Shown: positions 4,180 through 57,518, counted from the stretch's first letter. The stretch is DNA of 64,000 nt from Dehalococcoidia bacterium (GCA_034408935.1 DAOUMV010000025.1:99593-163592); one strand, 5' to 3'. The notes: generated by a model not told the origin, from the sequence alone. Program-made: numbers and translations.

Positions 4180-4212
4180 GCATCTACTGAGCCTGTCGAA
4201 GGGCGAGCTCCT
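4180..4212. repeat. Palindromic mini-element family C copy (reverse orientation) upstream of the membrane-gene/thrS operon
   Basis: The reverse complement reads GGAGCTCGCCCTTCGACAGGCTCAGTAGATGCC. Confidence 0.5.
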
Positions 4213-4497: not shown

Positions 4498-4574
4498 GGG
4501 CGATTAGCTCAGTTGGTTAGAGCGCAGCGTTGACATCGCTGAGGTCAGTGGTTCGAGTCCACTATCGCCCACCA
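4498..4574 (+). tRNA. tRNA-Val (anticodon GAC)
   Basis: Cloverleaf folded by hand: acceptor GGGCGAT/ATCGCCC, anticodon stem CAGCG/CGCTG, loop TTGACAT, T-loop TTCGAGT, encoded CCA. Confidence 0.9.
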
Positions 4575-4760
4575 CTTCGCTTACCCCTCTTAGGCTACTA
4601 GCCGCCCGCCGTCTTCAAGAACTTGCTCTTGATTCAGCACCCGGGTTGCGCCAGAATGGAAACGGCTGCCCCGGCGGCAGCTCATCGGCTGGGGTTATTG
4701 CCGCGTACGGCAAGCTCGTGATATACTTCGCAAACCTGGGCCCTGGCCAGCGACCGTCGC

Positions 4761-4836
<76 letters not shown>

Positions 4837-4861
4837 ATAGTGAGCAACCAAGATGGAGAAA

Positions 4862-4946
4862 GGGGAAGTGTCGGAACCGGTAGACGAGCGTGATTTAGGA
4901 TCACGTGCCGAAAGGCGTGGGGGTTCGAGTCCCCCCTTCCCCACCA
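4862..4946 (+). tRNA. tRNA-Leu (anticodon TAG), class II with a long variable arm
   Basis: GGGGAAG acceptor, anticodon stem CGTGA/TCACG, loop TTTAGGA, 13-nt variable arm, T-arm GGGGG TTCGAGT CCCCC, encoded CCA. Confidence 0.85.
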
Positions 4947-14951: not shown

Positions 14952-15222
14952 CGGTCGTGCTAGACGGGGAGCTAGCGGTGCCCTGTACCCGCAATCCGCT
15001 ATAGCGGGGTTGAACTCCCGCTCGAGGTCTGAGCTCCGCAGGGACTGCCTCTGACAAGCGGCGTTGAGGACCCGGCCCTGCGCGGCGAGGTGCCATGAAC
15101 CCCGTCAGGCCCGGAAGGGAGCAGCGGTAAGTGGTTAGCTTCGGGTGCCGTGGGCAAACCGAGTCGGAGTCGGTTGTCAGGGTAAGCCTGCGGTGCCGGA
15201 TCGACAGCGGGTGCACGACCAC
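14952..15222 (+). ncRNA. ffs: Signal recognition particle RNA, long Bacillus type with an Alu domain
   Basis: The 5' part GUGCUAGACGGGGAGCUAGCGGUGCCCUGUACCCGCAAUCCGCUAUAGCGGGG closely resembles the B. subtilis scRNA 5' domain as I remember it. The conserved helix-8 motif GUCAGGCCCGGAAGGGAGCAGC lies at 15104-15127. The 3' end GGAUCGACAGCGGGUGCACGACC matches the scRNA 3' end. A promoter TTGACA (14915-14920) plus an extended -10 lies upstream. The ends are approximate. Confidence 0.75.
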
Positions 15223-19045: not shown

Positions 19046-19085
19046 AGGGTTTCTCGAACCCTTCGACAGGCTCAGGACAAGCTCT
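19046..19085. repeat. Palindromic mini-element family C (core CCCTTCGACAGGCTCAGGAC), copy in the 5' leader of the PHP gene
   Basis: GGGTTTCTCGAACCCTTCGACAGGCTCAGGACAAGCTC. The core is identical to the copies at 31987, 35357 and 51590. Confidence 0.6.
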
Positions 19086-31000: not shown

Positions 31001-31706
31001 GGGCCCCGGCGGCCTGCGCCCCATCTCCGGCGGCGCCGACGTCGACCCCGAGGTACTGGAGCGCGACATCGAAAGGATGCGGGGCCAGCTCCGTCGCCTG
31101 GGCCCCGTGAACGTGGAGGCCGAGGAGGACTACACGGAGCTGCGAGAGCGACACGATTTCCTGACCTCCCAGCTCGACGACCTGAGCGGCGCCGAGAAGG
31201 CGCTCCACCGCGCCATCGACGAGCTACACGGGGTCATGCGCAAGCGCTTCCAGTCGACCTTCGAGACGGTGGCCAGCGGGTTCGAGGAGTACTTCCAGGC
31301 GTTCTTCGGCGGCGGCCGCGCCCGTCTGGCCCTCAGCGAGCCAAGTGACCTCCAGAACACGGGGGTGGAGATCGAGGCGCAGCCGCCGGGGAAGCGGGTC
31401 CAGAGCATGGCGCAGCTCTCCGGCGGGGAGAAGGCGCTGACGGCGGTGTCGCTGCTGTTCGCGCTGCTGCAGGCGAACCCGTCGCCTTTCTGCGTCCTGG
31501 ACGAGGTGGACGCCATGCTGGACGAGGCCAACGTGGGCCGGTTCGTGTCCGCGCTCCAGGAGCTGGCGAAGAAGACGCAGTTCGCTGTCATCACGCACAA
31601 CCGGCGGACGATCGAGGTGTCGGACAGCATCTACGGGGTGTCGATGGGGCCGGACACCGTGTCACGGGTGCTGTCCCTGCGCCTGGCAGACGTGAAGGCG
31701 GACTAG
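28095..31706 (+). CDS. smc: Chromosome segregation protein SMC
   Basis: N-terminal Walker A GPNGSGKSNI, long coiled coils, hinge, C-terminal LSGGEKALTAVSLLFAL signature and Walker B. Confidence 0.95.
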   Translation: MYLKRLEVQGFKSFATRTVFDFGQGITAIVGPNGSGKSNIADALRWVLGEQSGRLLRARKMEDAIFAGSSKRQRADKAEVTLTLDNSDGWLPLEFSEVAITRRGYRNGESQYRINRKRVRLRDLQELLAKSSMAQGSYAIIGQGLVETVLNLRPDERRQLIEEAADIQRYRFRIDEARAKLTATHENVERVNLLVKEIAPRLGHLERQAKRAADYARISRQLSQALRAHYGHQWHHSHESLAVSRAAHDQAQAEFTQAKVAAETCQQELAEVSKGVEERRRRASASAADRQQLADRIRELEQSLAVSAQRGTILETRQQELRDEVAALEEERARAAEVVSGLDARGEELKEALATARAELDHRREELVALEDDLTGAQGRAAEDEAKSQRLRAAAADIAARTKRLSLSRRDLEREVARLDTRRRSIISQMAELIRVLRGYRADDAGLAEELAGVSERRQSLESGITELRESLAKVEANQNARRGKMEALEARLNVLSEAQRQLQSAPPDESPVTVEGAVGAIYEIIRVPRGLEQAIEAALSDMVEAFIVQHRVEAVDAIRALIAQDAPRTTILPLDAIKQVYPLNLMREKGIMGVAAQLVKCQPPYQKLIDALLGRTIVVQDVETASRVIRRGLGTVVTLDGVVFHPMGAMTAGFPRATRPYILGHERDLESLPKEIDRLRRALAVTESEAHSLRDRLRQDETAHAALAAEVDRGLGRRMRVQNAIADRQRRLGQLRGELRGLISSKDNLRDQGESLGRECDRLAEEREQSLTEAEQLKESASYLQKAGNLVEERRGQLQRAVAEATSLPAGLEGHLQSLDVQRENGKATLARLDAQLSAKGIQLRGLEMERSTLESSARSDNEELARVREELRPLVETSAPDQGETVQLELRERELHQQLLAAQGRMFKAERHLLETETEVRRWETEADALRQRIRDEGLSITGEGEVVSPEIAQPLVPHWLAADGEEGPGGLRPISGGADVDPEVLERDIERMRGQLRRLGPVNVEAEEDYTELRERHDFLTSQLDDLSGAEKALHRAIDELHGVMRKRFQSTFETVASGFEEYFQAFFGGGRARLALSEPSDLQNTGVEIEAQPPGKRVQSMAQLSGGEKALTAVSLLFALLQANPSPFCVLDEVDAMLDEANVGRFVSALQELAKKTQFAVITHNRRTIEVSDSIYGVSMGPDTVSRVLSLRLADVKAD

Positions 31707-31730: not shown

Positions 31731-31930
31731 CGGTCGATCAAAGCGTTTTCCCTATCTGGATTTCGATGGAGAGGGCTGTTTCAGGTTGCCGGTTTGATCG
31801 TTCGGGGCGTGATCTGTTTTTCCAGGGGCCGCCCCGTATCCGGCGAGGCCCGTCCGGGGGCCGATTCGGTTGATGGAACGACGTTCCGCAATAGGGGGCC
31901 GGACGGATGATCAAAGACGCTAACGGGGTG
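31731..31930. repeat. MITE-like intergenic repeat, family A, copy 2
   Basis: CGATCAAAGCGTTTTCCCTATCTGGATTTCGATGG...GGTTTGATCGTTCGGGGCG aligns with 7106-7190. Partial extra copies lie at 31834-31854 and 31907-31928. Confidence 0.6.
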
Positions 31931-31986
31931 CTGAGGAGGGCCTGGGCCGCTCGTGGTTCGACTGGCTCACCACGAGCGGAGTGTAT

Positions 31987-32023
31987 AGCCGCGGGCCCTT
32001 CGACAGGCTCAGGGCGAACGGCT
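31987..32023. repeat. Palindromic mini-element family C, intergenic copy
   Basis: AGCCGCGGGCCCTTCGACAGGCTCAGGGCGAACGGCT with imperfect terminal inverted repeats. Confidence 0.6.
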
Positions 32024-32081
32024 AAGTTGCGCATGACGAGTTGAGCTTACCGCAAGGGGCACGAGAGGTATAAGGTAGGGG

Positions 32082-33611
32082 TTGCAGGGGGTGGGGGACT
32101 GTCGACGTGAAAGCTGGGTGCCGTCTACAACAGTGAAGAACTTCAGACATTCTGTAGCCGACCTCTTGAAACGGCGTACTTCGAAACAAAAAGCCGCTGC
32201 CTCACAGATCGAAGATGCCCTGAAGTATCATCACGACGAGGGTGATCCAGATGAGAACCGACGAACCTGCCCTCCCGACGATGAGCGAATTGATATCCAC
32301 TGCGTATGGGTTGTGGAACTTTACCCGCCGTCACAGGTGGATCAGCTGGTATCACATATTCGCGGTCTAGGTTGGGCGGAAGCGGACGCCACGATGGACC
32401 GAGAAGGTCTCGAATCATGGATACGAGAGTCCACATTGAGTGTGGGAAAGGCGGGTTGGAAGAATCTCAATAATATTGTCCGTCCAGGCGATACGCGCTT
32501 CTTCTTTGGATCACCGCGGAGCGCCTCCCTTCCAGATGTGGCCGACTACGCCATGGGTGGGATTCATCAAATCTTTCCGGGTCTTGTCGGGGTCGTCCTG
32601 CAGTTTGTTCTCAGGGACGATGCTGCAAGGCGCATTGATTTGGAGCTGCGGCGTGGGCGTAAGACCTTTGCTGTGCCCGGTGCCCGCGGTGTCGCGCTCA
32701 TGACACCCCATCATCAGAAGATGGAGTCTTGTTCGCAAGTGCGTGAGGAGATCAGGCAGAGCTGTGCATCCTGGTTCCGCACTCATTTGCCTGGCTTCTT
32801 TTCGTCAATGGGAGAGAGAGCACAATTTCCTACCGGGGAGTTCATCACATTCCGAAAGGCCAAGCCGTATGAACAACTTCCCAGCGACGAGTGGCCGCAC
32901 TACCTTTGGGTTCTTCATATGGATAACGACTTTGATGTGTGGCAAGCGAGGGAACTGCCTGGTGTTCGATTGGAGTGCGGCTCGTCAAGGGAAGGGACCA
33001 CCTTCGCTTTGACATTTGCTGCTCAAGAGTGTCAATACTTCGCCGCCGAGACAGACGATGAATGGAAGTCCCATGGCGGACGGAATCGCCACGGGTATGC
33101 CAACAGACTGAGGCACGTCGAATTTGCGCTCATGAGATGGGCGCTCTACGCGCTTCTAACGAATGTTGAAGGGCAGTTCGCGTCCCTACGAAACCGGGTC
33201 GCCAGCATAGATCTGGGCAATGCGGGCCGCGCCGCTCGGATGCTGCAAGCCGTCCAAGCGGACCTGCTGACCTTGTCAAGAGATGTCGTGCCCGTGGCTT
33301 CCGAACTGAAAGAGTTCTCGGAACGGCCGGGGTGGTTTCACTCCCAAGTCTATGAGTTTCGTCCCATGGGCAATATGCGCTCCAACGAGCCGCATTTGTT
33401 CGAGGGGTTGCGGCAGGGGCTCGCCAGGCGCGCGGTGCGTCTTCAAGGATTCGAGCGGGAGGTCAAAGACGCAGCGACAAGCCAGGGAGCATTGGTGGCA
33501 ACGATTTCTCAGAGCCGGGCCAGTGACAACATAGTCAAACTGACCATCGCGATCGTTGTTCTGACGGCTGTCGTCGCCGGTCTGACCGGCTGGCTAGCGT
33601 TCTTCGACTAG
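32082..33611 (+). CDS. Hypothetical tail-anchored protein (509 aa, single C-terminal TM helix) on a lower-GC island
   Basis: GC is about 50-55% against about 68% in the flanks. TTG start with an AAGGTAGGGG RBS. C-terminal TM helix IVKLTIAIVVLTAVVAGLTGWLAFF. No recognisable domain. Confidence 0.5.
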   Translation: MQGVGDCRRESWVPSTTVKNFRHSVADLLKRRTSKQKAAASQIEDALKYHHDEGDPDENRRTCPPDDERIDIHCVWVVELYPPSQVDQLVSHIRGLGWAEADATMDREGLESWIRESTLSVGKAGWKNLNNIVRPGDTRFFFGSPRSASLPDVADYAMGGIHQIFPGLVGVVLQFVLRDDAARRIDLELRRGRKTFAVPGARGVALMTPHHQKMESCSQVREEIRQSCASWFRTHLPGFFSSMGERAQFPTGEFITFRKAKPYEQLPSDEWPHYLWVLHMDNDFDVWQARELPGVRLECGSSREGTTFALTFAAQECQYFAAETDDEWKSHGGRNRHGYANRLRHVEFALMRWALYALLTNVEGQFASLRNRVASIDLGNAGRAARMLQAVQADLLTLSRDVVPVASELKEFSERPGWFHSQVYEFRPMGNMRSNEPHLFEGLRQGLARRAVRLQGFEREVKDAATSQGALVATISQSRASDNIVKLTIAIVVLTAVVAGLTGWLAFFD

Positions 33612-33663
33612 GCACTTCCGCCTTCCGCTTGCCGCACCCTTCCCCTGCCCCTATCATCGGGGC

Positions 33664-34854
33664 GTGGTGAAGGAGCCGGTTTCCGAGCACCCGCGTGTCG
33701 CCGCGTGGCTGGGGCACGTGCGCGCCCTGGCGGAGGGAATCGGCGCGCGCGGCGCGACGCGGGAGGGGGAGCGCAAGGGCTCGGAATACGCCAAGGCTCA
33801 GTTCGAAGGGATGGGGCTGACCCCGGTCTGGGAGTCGTTCCGTGGGGCGCGTTCGATCTTCCACCCACACTTGCTCGGCAGCGTGCTGATGCTGCTTGCC
33901 TTCGCCGTCTACCCGCTCGGTGGGCGGGTCACGGCCGCTGTGGCAGCGGCGCTGAGCGTGCTGGTGGTGGTGTCGGAGGTGCAAGAGCTCAGTTTTCGGG
34001 ACAACCTCCTGCGTCGCCTGGTGCCCAAGGGTGAGAGCCAGAACGTCTACAGCGTCATCGCACCCAAAGCTGAACACAGTGGCGATCTGGTGCTTGTGGG
34101 TCACGTCGACACGCAGCGGACTCCGCTGATCTTCCGCAGCCGCCGCTGGGTCAAGGCTTACGACCGCTTCACGATGATCGTCTTCGTGACCTTCGTCGCC
34201 CAAGTGTTGTTGTACGCCCTGGGTGCCATCTTGTCCTGGGGCTGGGTCTGGTACGCCACTATCCCTACGGCGGTCTGCGCGGTGCTGCTCGCGGCCGTGT
34301 GCCTAGAGGCGGATTCGACGCCGTTCACGGCCGGGGCCAACGACAACGCCACCGGGGCAGGCATCGTGCTGACCCTGGCCGAGGCGCTGGCCAGAAACTC
34401 GCTGAAGCACAGGCGGGTGTTCGCAGTGGTGACCGGATGCGAGGAGGTCCAGCACTACGGGATGATCGACTGGTACAGGCGCCACCGCACTGAACTCAAG
34501 AATCCGAAAGCGATAGTGTTCGAGATGCTGGGCTGCGCCGGGCCTGCCTGGGGGACGCGCGAGGGGATCATCGTGCCCTTCAGGAGCGACCCCGAACTCG
34601 CGGGCATGGCTGAACGGCTGGCGGCCGCCCATCCCGAGTGGGAAGCGTATGGCTGCAAGATAAGCGGGGGCAACTCGGAGCTCGCTGATGCTGTGCGCTT
34701 CAAGGTGCCGGGCATTACGATTTGGGGCATCGGGCGAGACGGCGAAGCACCTCACTGGCACCAGCGCGGCGATACGTTCGACAAGATGAACCCGGATGTG
34801 ATGGAGCACGCCTGGGACCTAACCTGGGCGCTGGTGCAGGAACTCGACCGGTAG
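33664..34854 (+). CDS. M28-family Zn peptidase with membrane-spanning segments
   Basis: VLVGHVDT, NDNATGAGIVL and CEEVQHYG are M28 metal-binding motifs. It has internal TM helices. Confidence 0.7.
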   Translation: MVKEPVSEHPRVAAWLGHVRALAEGIGARGATREGERKGSEYAKAQFEGMGLTPVWESFRGARSIFHPHLLGSVLMLLAFAVYPLGGRVTAAVAAALSVLVVVSEVQELSFRDNLLRRLVPKGESQNVYSVIAPKAEHSGDLVLVGHVDTQRTPLIFRSRRWVKAYDRFTMIVFVTFVAQVLLYALGAILSWGWVWYATIPTAVCAVLLAAVCLEADSTPFTAGANDNATGAGIVLTLAEALARNSLKHRRVFAVVTGCEEVQHYGMIDWYRRHRTELKNPKAIVFEMLGCAGPAWGTREGIIVPFRSDPELAGMAERLAAAHPEWEAYGCKISGGNSELADAVRFKVPGITIWGIGRDGEAPHWHQRGDTFDKMNPDVMEHAWDLTWALVQELDR

Positions 34855-34930
34855 CCCCACCGCGATCCCTCTTAGGTTGGGCAGGACCTTCGCTTGCCCC
34901 TCTCCCCACCGCCCCCTATTATCGAGCCGT

Positions 34931-36019
34931 ATGGTGCGCTTCTTCCGTCGCAAGCAAGAGGGCCCCGCCACGCCAGCAGAGCCTGTCGAGCCCGCTGAAG
35001 GCGCCGAGGCGCCGGAGCAGCCCGTCGGCGCCGAGCCGTCTGAGGCCGTCGAGGCGCCCCACGATGTCGAGCAGGCGGTCGAGAAGACGCGGCGCACGTG
35101 GTTCTCCCGCATCGGGGGGCTGTTCCGCCGCGGCCTGGACGACGAGCTGTGGGACGAACTGGAGGAGACGCTGATCGCCGCCGACACCGGCGTGGAGACC
35201 ACCGTCAAGGTGCTGGAGAACCTGAAGGAGCGGGTGAAGGCGGAGGGGATCAGCGACCCGGAGCGGGCGGAGGGGGCGCTGAAGGAAGAGCTGCTGTCGA
35301 TCCTTGAGGTGGACGCGCGGCCGGGGAGGTTGTGGGGGCTTGCGGGGGGAGATGAGACCGCTCACCCTTCGACAGGGCTCAGGGTGAGCGGAGATGAGGC
35401 GCCGCCGAAGCCGGCGGTGGTGCTCGTCATCGGGGTGAACGGCACGGGGAAGACCACGAGCATCGCCAAACTCGCCCACGCCTACAGGGAGGGGGGCCAG
35501 AAGGTAATCATGGCCGCCGGCGACACGTTTCGCGCCGCCGCCATCGATCAGGTGAAGCAATGGGGCCAGCGGGTGGGCGTGGACGTGATCGCCCACAAGG
35601 AGGGGGCCGACCCCGGGGCGGTCGTGTTCGACGCCCTCTCGGCCGCCCAGAGTCGCGACGCCGACGTCGTCATCATCGACACCGCCGGGCGGTTGCACAC
35701 GAAGGTCAACCTGATGCAGGAGCTGCGCAAGGTCAACCGGGTCATCCAGCGCAAGTTCCCGGACGCGCCCCACGAGGTGCTGCTGGTGCTAGACGCTACG
35801 AGCGGGCAGAATGCCCTGCCCCAGGCGAAGTACTTCACCGAGGCGGTGGGCGTGACCGGCGTCCTCCTGGCCAAGCTGGACGGGACCGCTAAGGGCGGCG
35901 TCATCTTCGCCGTGTGCGACCAACTGCGCATCCCCGTACGCTTCGTCGGCACCGGCGAGAGAGCGGACGACCTGGCGCATTTCGAGCCCAGGCGGTTCGT
36001 GGACGCGCTTTTCGCCTAG
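34931..36019 (+). CDS. ftsY: Signal recognition particle receptor FtsY
   Basis: MVRFFRRKQ N-terminus, acidic A-domain, NG domain with GVNGTGKTT, DTAGR and the C-terminal GTGE motif. It carries an in-frame mini-element insertion at 35357-35389. Confidence 0.9.
   Translation: MVRFFRRKQEGPATPAEPVEPAEGAEAPEQPVGAEPSEAVEAPHDVEQAVEKTRRTWFSRIGGLFRRGLDDELWDELEETLIAADTGVETTVKVLENLKERVKAEGISDPERAEGALKEELLSILEVDARPGRLWGLAGGDETAHPSTGLRVSGDEAPPKPAVVLVIGVNGTGKTTSIAKLAHAYREGGQKVIMAAGDTFRAAAIDQVKQWGQRVGVDVIAHKEGADPGAVVFDALSAAQSRDADVVIIDTAGRLHTKVNLMQELRKVNRVIQRKFPDAPHEVLLVLDATSGQNALPQAKYFTEAVGVTGVLLAKLDGTAKGGVIFAVCDQLRIPVRFVGTGERADDLAHFEPRRFVDALFA
35357..35389. mobile_element. Palindromic mini-element family C copy inserted in-frame in ftsY, flanked by a 9-bp direct repeat GGAGATGAG
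   Basis: ACCGCTCACCCTTCGACAGGGCTCAGGGTGAGC has 10-bp perfect terminal inverted repeats (CGCTCACCCT / AGGGTGAGCG). Direct repeats lie at 35348-35356 and 35390-35398. Element plus duplication is 42 nt, i.e. 14 codons, encoding AHPSTGLRVSG in the FtsY A-domain. Confidence 0.65.
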
Positions 36020-51484: not shown

Positions 51485-51589
51485 CGGGGCGAAGTTAACG
51501 CGCACGTTAGAGTGACGCCTGCCTGCCGGTAGGCAGGGGCGAGGGCCAAAGGATCGGCCCTCGTCGTTTGTAAGCCGAACTCCGCTCGC

Positions 51590-51626
51590 CCTTCGACAGG
51601 CTCAGGACGAACGGAGAGAAGTGGAG
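51590..51626. repeat. Palindromic mini-element family C copy, plus a rearranged double copy at 51694-51750
   Basis: CTCCGCTCGCCCTTCGACAGGCTCAGGACGAACGGAG with 13-bp imperfect terminal inverted repeats. A second, composite copy is CCCCTTCGACAGGCCCTGCGACGGACTCTTCGACGCTGCTCAGGACAGGCTCAGGAC. Confidence 0.6.
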
Positions 51627-55778: not shown

Positions 55779-57518
55779 CTAGCGTCGGCCGAACTCCCGG
55801 GCCAGCGTCTCGGCGCTCATGTGGATCATGGTCGGGCGTCCGTGCGGGCAGGTGCTGGGCGCCTCTGAGTTCTCCATCTGGATGACGAGCTCTCGCATCT
55901 CCTCCTGGCTCAGCGTCTTGCCGGCGCGGATGGCGCTGTGGCAGGCCAGGGACATCGCTACGCTGTCACGGCGATCGCCTTCGCCCTCCTCCAGCATGAG
56001 GTCCAGGAACGACACGATCGCCTGGCGAGGGTCGGAGCCAGCGAGGGCCGTGGGCACGGCGCGCACGAGGTAGGACGCCTGGCCGAAGGGCTCGACGGCG
56101 AAGCCGTGGTCGCCCAACAGCTCCTCGTGTTCGGTGATCAGCGCCCGATGCGGGGGCGAGAGGTCCAGCGTCAGCGGCTCGAGCAGCGCCTGCACGTCCG
56201 GAGCGCTCTCCACGCGCTGGCGGCAGAAGCGCTCGTAGAGGACGCGCTCGTGGGCAGCGTGCTGATCGATGAGGTACATACCGTCGGGGCCTTCGGCGAT
56301 GATGTAGGTGCTGCCAAGCTGGCCGATGACACGCAGGGCGGGCAGGGCGGCGGCGGGCGTCGACGGGCCGGCCGCGGGGGATGGCTGCGTTGCCTCCGCT
56401 TCCGCCTGCCTGCGCTCCAACGCGCGGGCGTGCTCCCACAAGGGTGGCGACGAGGGCTGAACGGAGAGATCGAGCGTCGCTGAGGGGGCAACCGTGGCCG
56501 CGGGCACTGGCGCGGACTCCAGCAGGGCTGCCCTCACCGCGCGCTGGACTGCCCCGAACACGGCCGACTCGTCCCGGAAGCGGACCTCTCGCTTCGTCGG
56601 ATGGACATTGACGTCCACCTCCTCGTGGGGCATCCGCAGGTGGAGGACGGCGATGGGATAGCGCCCGACCATCAGCATCCCCCGATACGCCTCCTCCACT
56701 GCGTAGGCGAGGCGCCGACTCTGGATCCAGCGCCCGTTGACGAACAGGCTCACGTAGCCCCGGCTGGCGCGGCTCACGTGGGGCGAGGAGGACAGCCCTT
56801 CGACGGAGCTCAGGACAGGCCCTTCCACGGTCACAGCGCCTTCGCCTGGCCGGACGGGGAGCATCGCCGCGGCCACATCCGCGCCATAGACGGCGGCGAT
56901 GGCGTCCCGCAGTTCGCCGCTGCCGCTGGTCAGCAGTACCTGCCGACCGTCGAGGGTTAGGGAGAAGCGCACGGCCGGGTAAGCCAGGGCGTAGTGGCTG
57001 ACCACGGAGGCGATCTGGTTGGCCTCGGTGGAGGGAGAGCGCAGGAACTTGCGGCGCGCTGGCTGGCGGGCGAAGAGGTTGCGCACGGCGACGCTGGTGC
57101 CCACAGGGGCGCCCCGGCTCCCTCGCTCCACCGCGGCGCCGCCGTCGAGTCGGATGAACGCGGCGGACTGAGCGTCGGGCGGCCGCGACACCATCTCCAC
57201 CTCGGCCACGGCGGCGATGGCGGGGAGGGCCTCGCCGCGGAAGCCGAGGCTGGTGATGCGCAGCAGGTCGTCATCCGTCAGCTTGCTGGTGGCGTGACGG
57301 GCGAAGGCGATCTCCAGTTCCTCGGGGGCCAAGCCGCATCCATCGTCCACCACGCGGATGGTGTCCGTACCACCACCGGCGATCTCCACCGAGATGACGC
57401 CGGCGCCGGCGTCGAGGGCGTTCTCCACCAGCTCCTTGACCACGGAGGCGGGCCGCTCCACCACCTCGCCAGCGGCGATCCTGGCGGCGACATCAGGGGA
57501 GAGAACGCGGATGGTCAA
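55779..57518 (-). CDS. mutL: DNA mismatch repair protein MutL
   Basis: GHKL ATPase motifs ELVENALDAG, DDGCG. TTG start with an AGGAGC RBS and a TACAAT -10. Its linker contains a degenerate mini-element copy (56794-56822, encoding GPVLSSVEGLSS). Confidence 0.9.
   Translation of the reverse strand: MTIRVLSPDVAARIAAGEVVERPASVVKELVENALDAGAGVISVEIAGGGTDTIRVVDDGCGLAPEELEIAFARHATSKLTDDDLLRITSLGFRGEALPAIAAVAEVEMVSRPPDAQSAAFIRLDGGAAVERGSRGAPVGTSVAVRNLFARQPARRKFLRSPSTEANQIASVVSHYALAYPAVRFSLTLDGRQVLLTSGSGELRDAIAAVYGADVAAAMLPVRPGEGAVTVEGPVLSSVEGLSSSPHVSRASRGYVSLFVNGRWIQSRRLAYAVEEAYRGMLMVGRYPIAVLHLRMPHEEVDVNVHPTKREVRFRDESAVFGAVQRAVRAALLESAPVPAATVAPSATLDLSVQPSSPPLWEHARALERRQAEAEATQPSPAAGPSTPAAALPALRVIGQLGSTYIIAEGPDGMYLIDQHAAHERVLYERFCRQRVESAPDVQALLEPLTLDLSPPHRALITEHEELLGDHGFAVEPFGQASYLVRAVPTALAGSDPRQAIVSFLDLMLEEGEGDRRDSVAMSLACHSAIRAGKTLSQEEMRELVIQMENSEAPSTCPHGRPTMIHMSAETLAREFGRR

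Follow-up and report, generated by a model that had tools for sequence, protein, structure and literature searches.

A dispersed hairpin repeat in frame within the predicted N–G linker of ftsY in a Dehalococcoidia bacterium

We analyzed a stretch of 64,000 nucleotides from a Dehalococcoidia bacterium (GCA_034408935.1, DAOUMV010000025.1:99593-163592; hereafter the window), in which the gene ftsY carries a short palindrome bracketed by a 9-nt direct repeat. The palindrome is a copy of a dispersed repeat and not native FtsY sequence. We consider it probable that positions 35358-35391 represent one copy of a hairpin repeat resembling repetitive extragenic palindromes (REPs), lodged in frame in a linker of FtsY that turns over as a cassette, with the direct repeat as a local by-product. 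A first-pass annotation of the same DNA had described a transposed mini-element with a target-site duplication. The hairpin part of that description stands, as a copy of a dispersed repeat with more copies in the window, but the 9-bp repeat lost its value as a hallmark of transposition once the flanks of 148 copies were compared. The features are summarized in Table 1.

The nucleotides of the insert are as first annotated, with GGAGATGAG at both ends of the 33-mer ACCGCTCACCCTTCGACAGGGCTCAGGGTGAGC, and a repeat finder returned the exact 9-nt direct repeat at a spacing of 42 nt. The codons from 35348..35398 read GGA GAT GAG ACC ... AGC GGA GAT GAG (G140-E156), confirming that the reading frame of ftsY is preserved across the 42 nt, which contribute 14 residues, TAHPSTGLRVSGDE. 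The palindrome had been drawn as a perfect 10-bp inverted repeat at the ends of the 33-mer. Instead, the arms CCGCTCACCCT and AGGGTGAGCGG form an inverted repeat of 11 nt (35358-68 and 35381-91), which begins 1 nt inside the 33-mer and stops 2 nt inside the second repeat copy; thus, the ends of the element differ from those first proposed. When the element is bounded by the family consensus (35358-35391), the repeat outside it is reduced to AGATGAG. The RNA fold of the hairpin has a free energy of -21.7 kcal/mol (z = -3.0), as compared to -22.4 kcal/mol (z = -3.8) for the opposite strand, and the sense orientation is free of stop codons in all three frames. Perfect inverted repeats with arms of 11 nt or more around a loop of 3-20 nt are rare: the window contains four, as compared to 0.7 expected, and this hairpin family accounts for two of them.

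Searches of the window with the 33-mer, either exactly or with 3 mismatches, returned no match besides the query itself. By allowing a loop shorter by 1 nt and free stem interiors, we identified three full family copies in the 64-kb window, that in ftsY included, and about four partial ones. The copies in ftsY and at 31947 both read CCGCTC....TTCGAC.GGCTCA....GAGCGG, with inner stems ACCC/GGGT and GTGG/CCAC, respectively. The family consensus of ~33 nt is (CC)GCTC-NNNN-TTCGAC-N(1-2)-GGCTCA-NNNN-GAGC(GG), that is, a conserved outer stem GCTC/GAGC, a freely covarying inner stem and a conserved loop of 13-14 nt, TTCGAC-N-GGCTCA.

A collection with one genome per species was scanned with the pattern GCTC-N4-TTCGAC-N1-2-GGCTCA-N4-GARC, which gave at least 120 stretches, so that abundances are not comparable between groups. 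Hosts among the matches listed, to which the counts below also refer, were Dehalococcoidia, other Chloroflexota, Binatia, Acidobacteriota, Geomonas, Chlorobiota, Fibrobacteres, Elusimicrobia, Nitrospirae, Methylomirabilota, several Proteobacteria, Methylococcales (including the isolate Methylotuvimicrobium buryatense 5G) and Anaeromyxobacter (including the isolate PSR-1). In 69 of 151 unique copies, all four of the free inner stem pairs were Watson-Crick (90 copies when G-T pairs were accepted), as compared to 15 +/- 3.5 when the right halves were re-dealt among copies, and more than 10 compensated inner-stem variants were observed. The loop was TTCGACAGGCTCA in 113 of the 151 copies, and the variant in the window ftsY was seen in 1/151. 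Outside the core, the family flank logo had just two conserved features, a CC to the left (63-68%) and a GG to the right (85-97%), and we therefore define the unit as 33-34 nt.

Rfam 15 returned no match at the gathering score for the window sites and none at E <= 10 in 31800-35500, and no Pfam family matched the repeat-encoded peptides. Only 3 matches were obtained in a scan of viral contigs, and phages are thus not an obvious carrier. A transposase was sought between two inverted copies at one locus (L112; L numbers denote the loci compared), where only AsnC, DUF1801, DUF4917 and PheRS were found.

The host gene was identified as ftsY from its domain content. Pfam placed SRP54_N (PF02881, 55 bits) at residues 59-121 and the SRP54 GTPase (PF00448, 257 bits) at residues 161-361, and the P-loop motif GxxGxGKT follows the linker as GVNGTGKT. 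An SRP54_N helical bundle is thus followed by an SRP54-type GTPase, as in FtsY, and solved FtsY structures in the PDB were matched down to E 2.9e-92. According to the list of open reading frames (ORFs), a longer ftsY ORF from TTG 34877 is also possible.

The first-pass annotation had placed the insert in the acidic A domain. In an AlphaFold model built on 40 orthologs, the final helix of the N domain covers residues 110-125 and the first strand of the G domain residues 162-168, while the A-like tail, rich in acids and proline, is N-terminal (residues 1-42). Residues 129-156 were modelled as coil without secondary structure, at a predicted local distance difference test (pLDDT) score below 50, and an alignment to the solved Thermotoga FtsY left out query residues 129-157 as a gap. 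Together, the Pfam limits, the coil and the Thermotoga gap place the insert in the N-G linker directly before the P-loop, a loop predicted to be disordered and tolerant of length, and not in the A domain. The suggestion that the location is permissive and disordered agrees with this model.

Table 1. Positions of the ftsY insert, its parts and further copies of the hairpin family, numbered from the first nucleotide of the window.
Feature	Position	Strand	Description and basis
ftsY coding sequence	34931..36019	+	362 aa, ATG 34931 to stop 36019, starts MVRFFRRK; ORF list, Pfam, PDB matches
N-G linker, hypervariable among relatives	35306..35413	+	Residues 126-161; between the two Pfam domains, AlphaFold, ortholog alignments
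Direct repeat copy 1, GGAGATGAG	35348..35356	+	G140 D141 E142; counterpart of the single GGG GGT GAG in empty-site alleles
33-mer of the first-pass annotation, ACCGCTCACCCTTCGACAGGGCTCAGGGTGAGC	35357..35389	+	Between both repeat copies
Direct repeat copy 2, GGAGATGAG	35390..35398	+	G154 D155 E156
Hairpin element per family consensus, CC-GCTCACCC-TTCGACAGGGCTCA-GGGTGAGC-GG	35358..35391	+	34 nt; inverted repeat, RNA fold, family flank logo
Left arm, CCGCTCACCCT	35358..35368	+	Perfect 11-nt inverted repeat
Loop, TCGACAGGGCTC	35369..35380	+	12 nt; one G more than the usual family loop
Right arm, AGGGTGAGCGG	35381..35391	+	Overlaps second repeat copy by 2 nt
Full intergenic family copy, CCGCTCGTGGTTCGACTGGCTCACCACGAGCGG	31947..31979	+	Inner stem covaries relative to the ftsY copy
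Partial family copy adjoining the 31947 copy, GCCCTTCGACAGGCTCAGGGCGAACGG	31994..32021	+	Motif search
Intergenic family copy, CCGCTCGCCCTTCGACAGGCTCAGGACGAACGG	51582..51614	+	Motif search; no flanking repeat
Partial family core, CCTTCGACAGGCTCAGG	19060..19076	+	Just upstream of a gene start
Family core within mutL (55779..57518, -)	56797..56814	+	In frame as PVLSSVEG
Partial family core, CCTTCGACAGGCTCAGT	4186..4202	-	Motif search

The presence of hairpin copies read in frame within genes is a general feature of the family. In mutL (window 56780-56830), the codons GTG GAA GGG CCT GTC CTG AGC TCC GTC GAA GGG CTG contain a family-derived segment of 24 nt in frame (VEG-PVLSSVEG-L), which is an insertion of 8 residues relative to the solved MutL N-terminal domains. 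This segment is flanked by the 7-nt repeat GAAGGGC, which is itself part of the element core. Further intragenic hairpins were identified as copies in long stop-free stretches of the compared loci, and these stretches were tested against Pfam. The hairpins were located inside or between domains of alanyl-tRNA synthetase (L109, L167), Lhr helicase (L157, L169), UvrA (L181), ribonucleotide reductase (L161), a MacB-type ABC transporter (L134) and an AMP-binding enzyme (L154).

We compared the linker among the best 120 FtsY relatives, which are of Chloroflexota/Dehalococcoidia type and come mostly from short metagenomic contigs. For the 40 closest proteins (about 75-88% identical), everything aligns but the linker, which contains motifs such as HPSTGLRVSG, SSFDRLRT, LRQAQGER, GDLKVAPT and AQQAAPL. 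At the DNA level, the first three of these are one hairpin in one orientation, read in three frames. Repeat-derived sequence persists at the linker in FtsY lineages down to about 65% identity, and in FtsY proteins from other phyla the linkers are short and free of such motifs. A more distant subclade has a short baseline linker of 10 residues, IWHSNGHRETLPKP, beside IWHSNGHPSTGSGQTDMPKP and IWHSNGHTLRQAQGERDIPKP. Forward-type motifs were found in 42 of the best 120 relatives and reverse-type motifs in 1.

The linkers of close relatives differ in their content of hairpin units. The window gene reads GCG GGG GGA GAT GAG [ACC-hairpin-GGA GAT GAG] GCG CCG CCG and has no upstream half-unit. The first-pass annotation predicted orthologs with an empty site, and alleles close to this expectation were found in the closest FtsY genes: L003/L004 (...AAG GCG GGG GGT GAG|GCG CCG CC...) and L209 (GGT GAA|GGC GCG) have no hairpin and a single copy of the site, with GGGGGTGAR in L003/L209, that is, a single GGGGGTGAG/GGGGGTGAA where the window has repeat, hairpin and repeat. 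A decayed half-hairpin (SSFDSPLKAG) lies upstream of the site. In L202, an upstream half-unit is followed by a hairpin between GGTGAGG repeats (7 nt) and then by a spare right arm. In L005/L059, the right half is all that is left of the hairpin; L016 and L203 contain tandem units in shifted frames, and in L081 GCG GGG is joined straight to GCG CCG, followed by an AAPL-type module.

L078, L079, L080 and L210 share with the window the sequence CAC CCT TCG ACG GGG CTC AGG GTG AGC GGn GAT GAr, and have to the left of the hairpin a different palindrome, GGGCGACCTAAAGGTYGCCCC (GDLKVAPT), in place of the first repeat copy. Since the hairpin and the right-hand G-D/G-E codons are common to these four loci, they are no private recent event of the window gene.

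Over 600 nt of G-domain DNA, L202, L078, L081 and L209 are 95-97% identical, yet they have four unrelated linkers. The linker behaves as a hypervariable cassette, and its content is replaced far more rapidly than the remainder of ftsY. Among the four linkers are one with no hairpin, one with another palindrome and a hairpin, one with a half-unit and a hairpin, and one with a half-unit only. A single ancient insertion followed by vertical decay was rejected as the whole story because of these unrelated linkers in nearly identical genes. A one-site model, in which the hairpin is homologous to the upstream half-unit of L003, was also rejected because L202 has both units in tandem.

Two other modules recur in the linkers. 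The first is the palindrome GGGCGACCTGAAGGTCGCCCC (GDLKVAPT), located at L078 805-827, L079 574-596 and L013 718-740 and in other ftsY linkers, and the second is a segment encoding (W)AQQAAPL(R/H). A search for the palindrome outside ftsY in the compared loci gave no true copies, and the second module was not found there either. In L016 (70-310), the segment LWGPSMGAGDLKVAPTHPSTGL is repeated upstream of a second, different linker; the contig is either internally duplicated or an assembly chimera.

Miniature transposable elements with inverted repeats (MITEs) are flanked by a target-site duplication, and the first-pass annotation had interpreted the insert as a transposed miniature element of 33 bp with terminal inverted repeats and a 9-bp target-site duplication. 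In such a model, a transposase with a 9-bp staggered cut would have inserted the element and duplicated GGAGATGAG. The observations on the ftsY locus itself are in line with this explanation. An exact 9-nt repeat brackets the hairpin, the combination of hairpin and 9-nt direct repeat is expected 0.005 times per window, L003/L004/L209 have a single site copy without the hairpin, and L202 has a hairpin with a 7-nt GGTGAGG repeat. We inspected the flanks of 148 unique family copies with full flanks among the matches listed, with offsets of up to 6 nt on either side, using as control the left and right flanks of different copies paired with each other. The distribution of flanking direct repeats equals that of the re-paired control, with no enrichment; 9 nt was reached by the window copy only, and one other copy reached 7 nt. 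The anticipated further copies thus exist, but duplications at their flanks are not enriched. Flanks re-paired at random reached at least 8 nt in about 0.2-0.3% of cases, which corresponds to roughly 0.3-0.4 expected cases for about 150 copies, as compared to a single observed case, the one that had been picked by eye.

The other evidence on this point agrees with the flank test. No flanking direct repeat was found at the other in-frame intragenic copies, of which the flanks were read in six of eight, nor at the intergenic copies in the window. The inverted repeat enters the direct repeat, indicating that the element ends had been misplaced; the repeat length is unequal, with 9 nt in the window and 7 nt in L202; and direct repeats of this kind (exact, 9 nt, within 60 nt) are frequent, with 52 in the 64-kb window as compared to 22 expected. 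The unit of about 33 nt is below the usual size of MITEs, and nothing is conserved outside CC...GG. The second repeat copy represents native G-D/G-E codons, which also stand to the right of the hairpin in relatives (GGC GAT GAG, GGG GAT GAA and GGT GAG in L078, L080, L202 and L005). GGTGAG resembles the right arm of the hairpin, and spare arms lie beside hairpins in L202 and L016; duplication of a partial unit or template switching could therefore produce such repeats. We conclude that the direct repeat is genuine and was probably generated when the hairpin was placed there or placed anew, but that it provides no evidence for a MITE-type transposase. As no enrichment was observed over 148 copies, target duplication is not supported as the mechanism of the family, and we consider a MITE insertion an unlikely explanation for the ftsY insert.

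In the explanation that we favor, the surface loop between the last helix of the N domain and the first strand of the GTPase received a hairpin copy, inserted in frame. This loop tolerates added length, and FtsY would still work, merely 14 residues longer, since the sense hairpin is stop-free in any frame; this may also be why the sense orientation is kept in genes. By analogy, the hairpins may be spread by a process without regular duplication, such as the single-strand mobilization of REPs by HUH-type enzymes, or by template-switch copying. Once seeded, the palindromes would destabilize the spot through slippage and template switching as well as through recombination with further copies of the family. 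Such instability could add, halve, duplicate, re-frame and delete units, so that the linker turns over as a cassette. The 9-nt repeat would then be a local by-product of one insertion or duplication at the native G-(D/G)-E codons rather than the mark left by a transposase cutting with a fixed stagger, and the insert is presumably tolerated rather than useful.

Several points weigh against this explanation. The mobilizing process is one that we only infer, and the window covers 64 kb of the source genome. The direct repeat is exact and 9 nt long, while re-paired flanks of at least 8 nt are as rare as stated above. The empty-site allele with its single copy and the 7-nt repeat of L202 at the same place resemble a real duplication at insertion. 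Furthermore, the neighbor-joining tree of the turnover carries no support values and is used qualitatively only, and some of the metagenomic contigs, such as L016, are perhaps chimeric.

A functional role for the hairpin as an mRNA or DNA structure, for instance one that makes translation pause between the N and G domains or binds a conserved factor, or for the loop peptide that it encodes, would imply that linker diversity reflects selection and not neutral churn. The stability of the hairpin on both strands, the conservation of the loop across phyla together with the covarying stem, the near-constant orientation in ftsY linkers and the persistence of repeat-derived linkers to about 65% FtsY identity are all consistent with a function. 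However, close relatives lack the hairpin, retain half of it or read it in another frame, and neither the peptide nor an intact hairpin is therefore required. Baseline alleles manage with a linker of 10 residues, Rfam gave no match even at E <= 10, and seeding on one occasion with subsequent local turnover would likewise be expected to give a constant orientation. We thus regard a function as improbable, more so than a MITE insertion. That mis-assembly or a chimeric join created the succession of repeat, hairpin and repeat is hardly credible, despite the source being a metagenome-assembled genome and L016 appearing internally duplicated, given that the reading frame is intact, that the hairpin and its right flank are common to orthologs from unrelated samples and that a 100% identical protein (P0001, 362 aa) is encoded both on an NCBI contig of 222,805 bp and in the Logan assembly of SRR14802572, which are independent of each other.

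In-frame palindromic repeats as such are already known, both from REPs in ORFs and from Rickettsia palindromic elements (RPEs). REPs of the GTAG- and CGTC-tagged superfamilies have been described within ORFs (Di Nocera et al. 2013, PMC3733652), where their hosts include UvrA-D, RecBCD, polymerases, tRNA synthetases and helicases. Like the family in ftsY, REPs are GC-rich hairpins of 20-40 nt that are mostly intergenic, sometimes paired or arrayed, and in a minority of cases located inside genes and read through. The ftsY element is likewise a short palindromic stem-loop (34 nt, a perfect stem of 11 bp, stem covariation), and the hosts are similar in that repair and RNA-handling genes are found in both cases, here mutL, UvrA, alanyl-tRNA synthetase and Lhr, and also ftsY; FtsY is not mentioned among the hosts in PMC3733652. 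Unlike REPs, the family has no GTAG/CGTC tag at either foot: GTAG, CTAC, CGTC or GACG within 8 nt of a foot was seen in only 0-8 of 151 copies. The family also has one loop and outer stem across many phyla, whereas the sequence families of REPs are numerous and vary from species to species (PMC3733652).

According to the summaries in PMC10969869 and PMC3733652, RPEs are palindromic selfish repeats inserted in frame into unrelated housekeeping genes at positions compatible with fold and function, and measure about 150 bp in Rickettsia (PMC10969869). The likeness to RPEs proposed in the first-pass annotation holds as an analogy. The hairpins are inserted in frame at permissive sites of housekeeping genes (ftsY, mutL, and the genes for alanyl-tRNA synthetase, Lhr, UvrA, ribonucleotide reductase and MacB), but in contrast to RPEs they are ~33-34 nt in size (11 residues), reside in free-living phyla and show rapid turnover at the site. 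MITEs, with a size of 70-300 bp and terminal repeats of 15-30 bp (PMC3733652), resemble the window copy in being non-autonomous and able to fuse in frame with host ORFs, and in their inverted ends and flanking direct repeat; bacterial examples of in-frame fusions are QMITE1 of Coxiella and intragenic copies of the enterobacterial repetitive intergenic consensus (ERIC; PMC10969869, PMC5896051). The hairpin family differs from them by its unit of 33-34 nt and by the absence of a target-site duplication of fixed length over 148 copies.

REPINs are REP doublets mobilized by REP-associated tyrosine transposases (RAYTs; PMC3116915). Several genomes contain two hairpins side by side, often inverted (L144, L128, L190), in a manner reminiscent of REPINs. 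In the window, two family units in the same orientation and with unlike stem interiors are located 15 nt apart at 31947-32021, in the spacer between a gene end at 31706 and a gene start at 32082. Unlike in REPINs, the paired units usually have different stem interiors, and the ftsY copy is a singlet.

The constancy of the loop and outer stem across phyla and the cassette-like turnover within an essential gene might be the unexpected aspects of these data. The family was undescribed in the literature that we searched by peptide strings, DNA core strings, and repeat terms with host taxa, a search of incomplete coverage. We propose tentatively, as a possibility that we consider doubtful at present, that this is an undescribed cross-phylum family of ~33 nt, the invariant 13-nt loop and outer stem of which imply a conserved partner, either a mobilizing enzyme or a host factor, and that the FtsY N-G linker of one Dehalococcoidia clade is an in-frame cassette rebuilt on strain-level time scales. 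A tagless hairpin with an identical loop and outer stem in many phyla points to a widely shared mobilizing activity or an unnamed function. The linker of an essential gene that is wholly different amid 95-97% identical DNA offers a naturally occurring set of alleles, filled, half-filled and empty, from which insertion and decay can be reconstructed stepwise. Finally, recurrent hairpin-encoded peptides (PSTGLR, FDRLR, LRQAQGER and others) can mislead gene calling in metagenomes, alignments and homology searches.

Some further arrangements of the hairpins were observed. In an Anaeromyxobacter contig (DATIDF010000345-type; L172, about 350-550), four copies of the hairpin are arrayed in tandem with a period of 57 nt and identical spacers. 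In L138 (4930-5010), and also in L083, L102, L175 and L196, the hairpins are located atop long, locus-specific lower stems, with 19 perfect base pairs in L138. Lower-stem extensions of at least 5 nt occur in about 9% of the copies, as compared to 0.7% in the re-paired control. Such copies look like hairpins that inserted into the loop of a palindrome already present, or that copied their own flank in inverted form. Elsewhere in the window, a gene for the large type of bacterial signal recognition particle RNA (Rfam RF01854, 205 bits) is located at 14955-15218, 20 kb upstream of ftsY, and three tRNA genes are present at 4498-4946.

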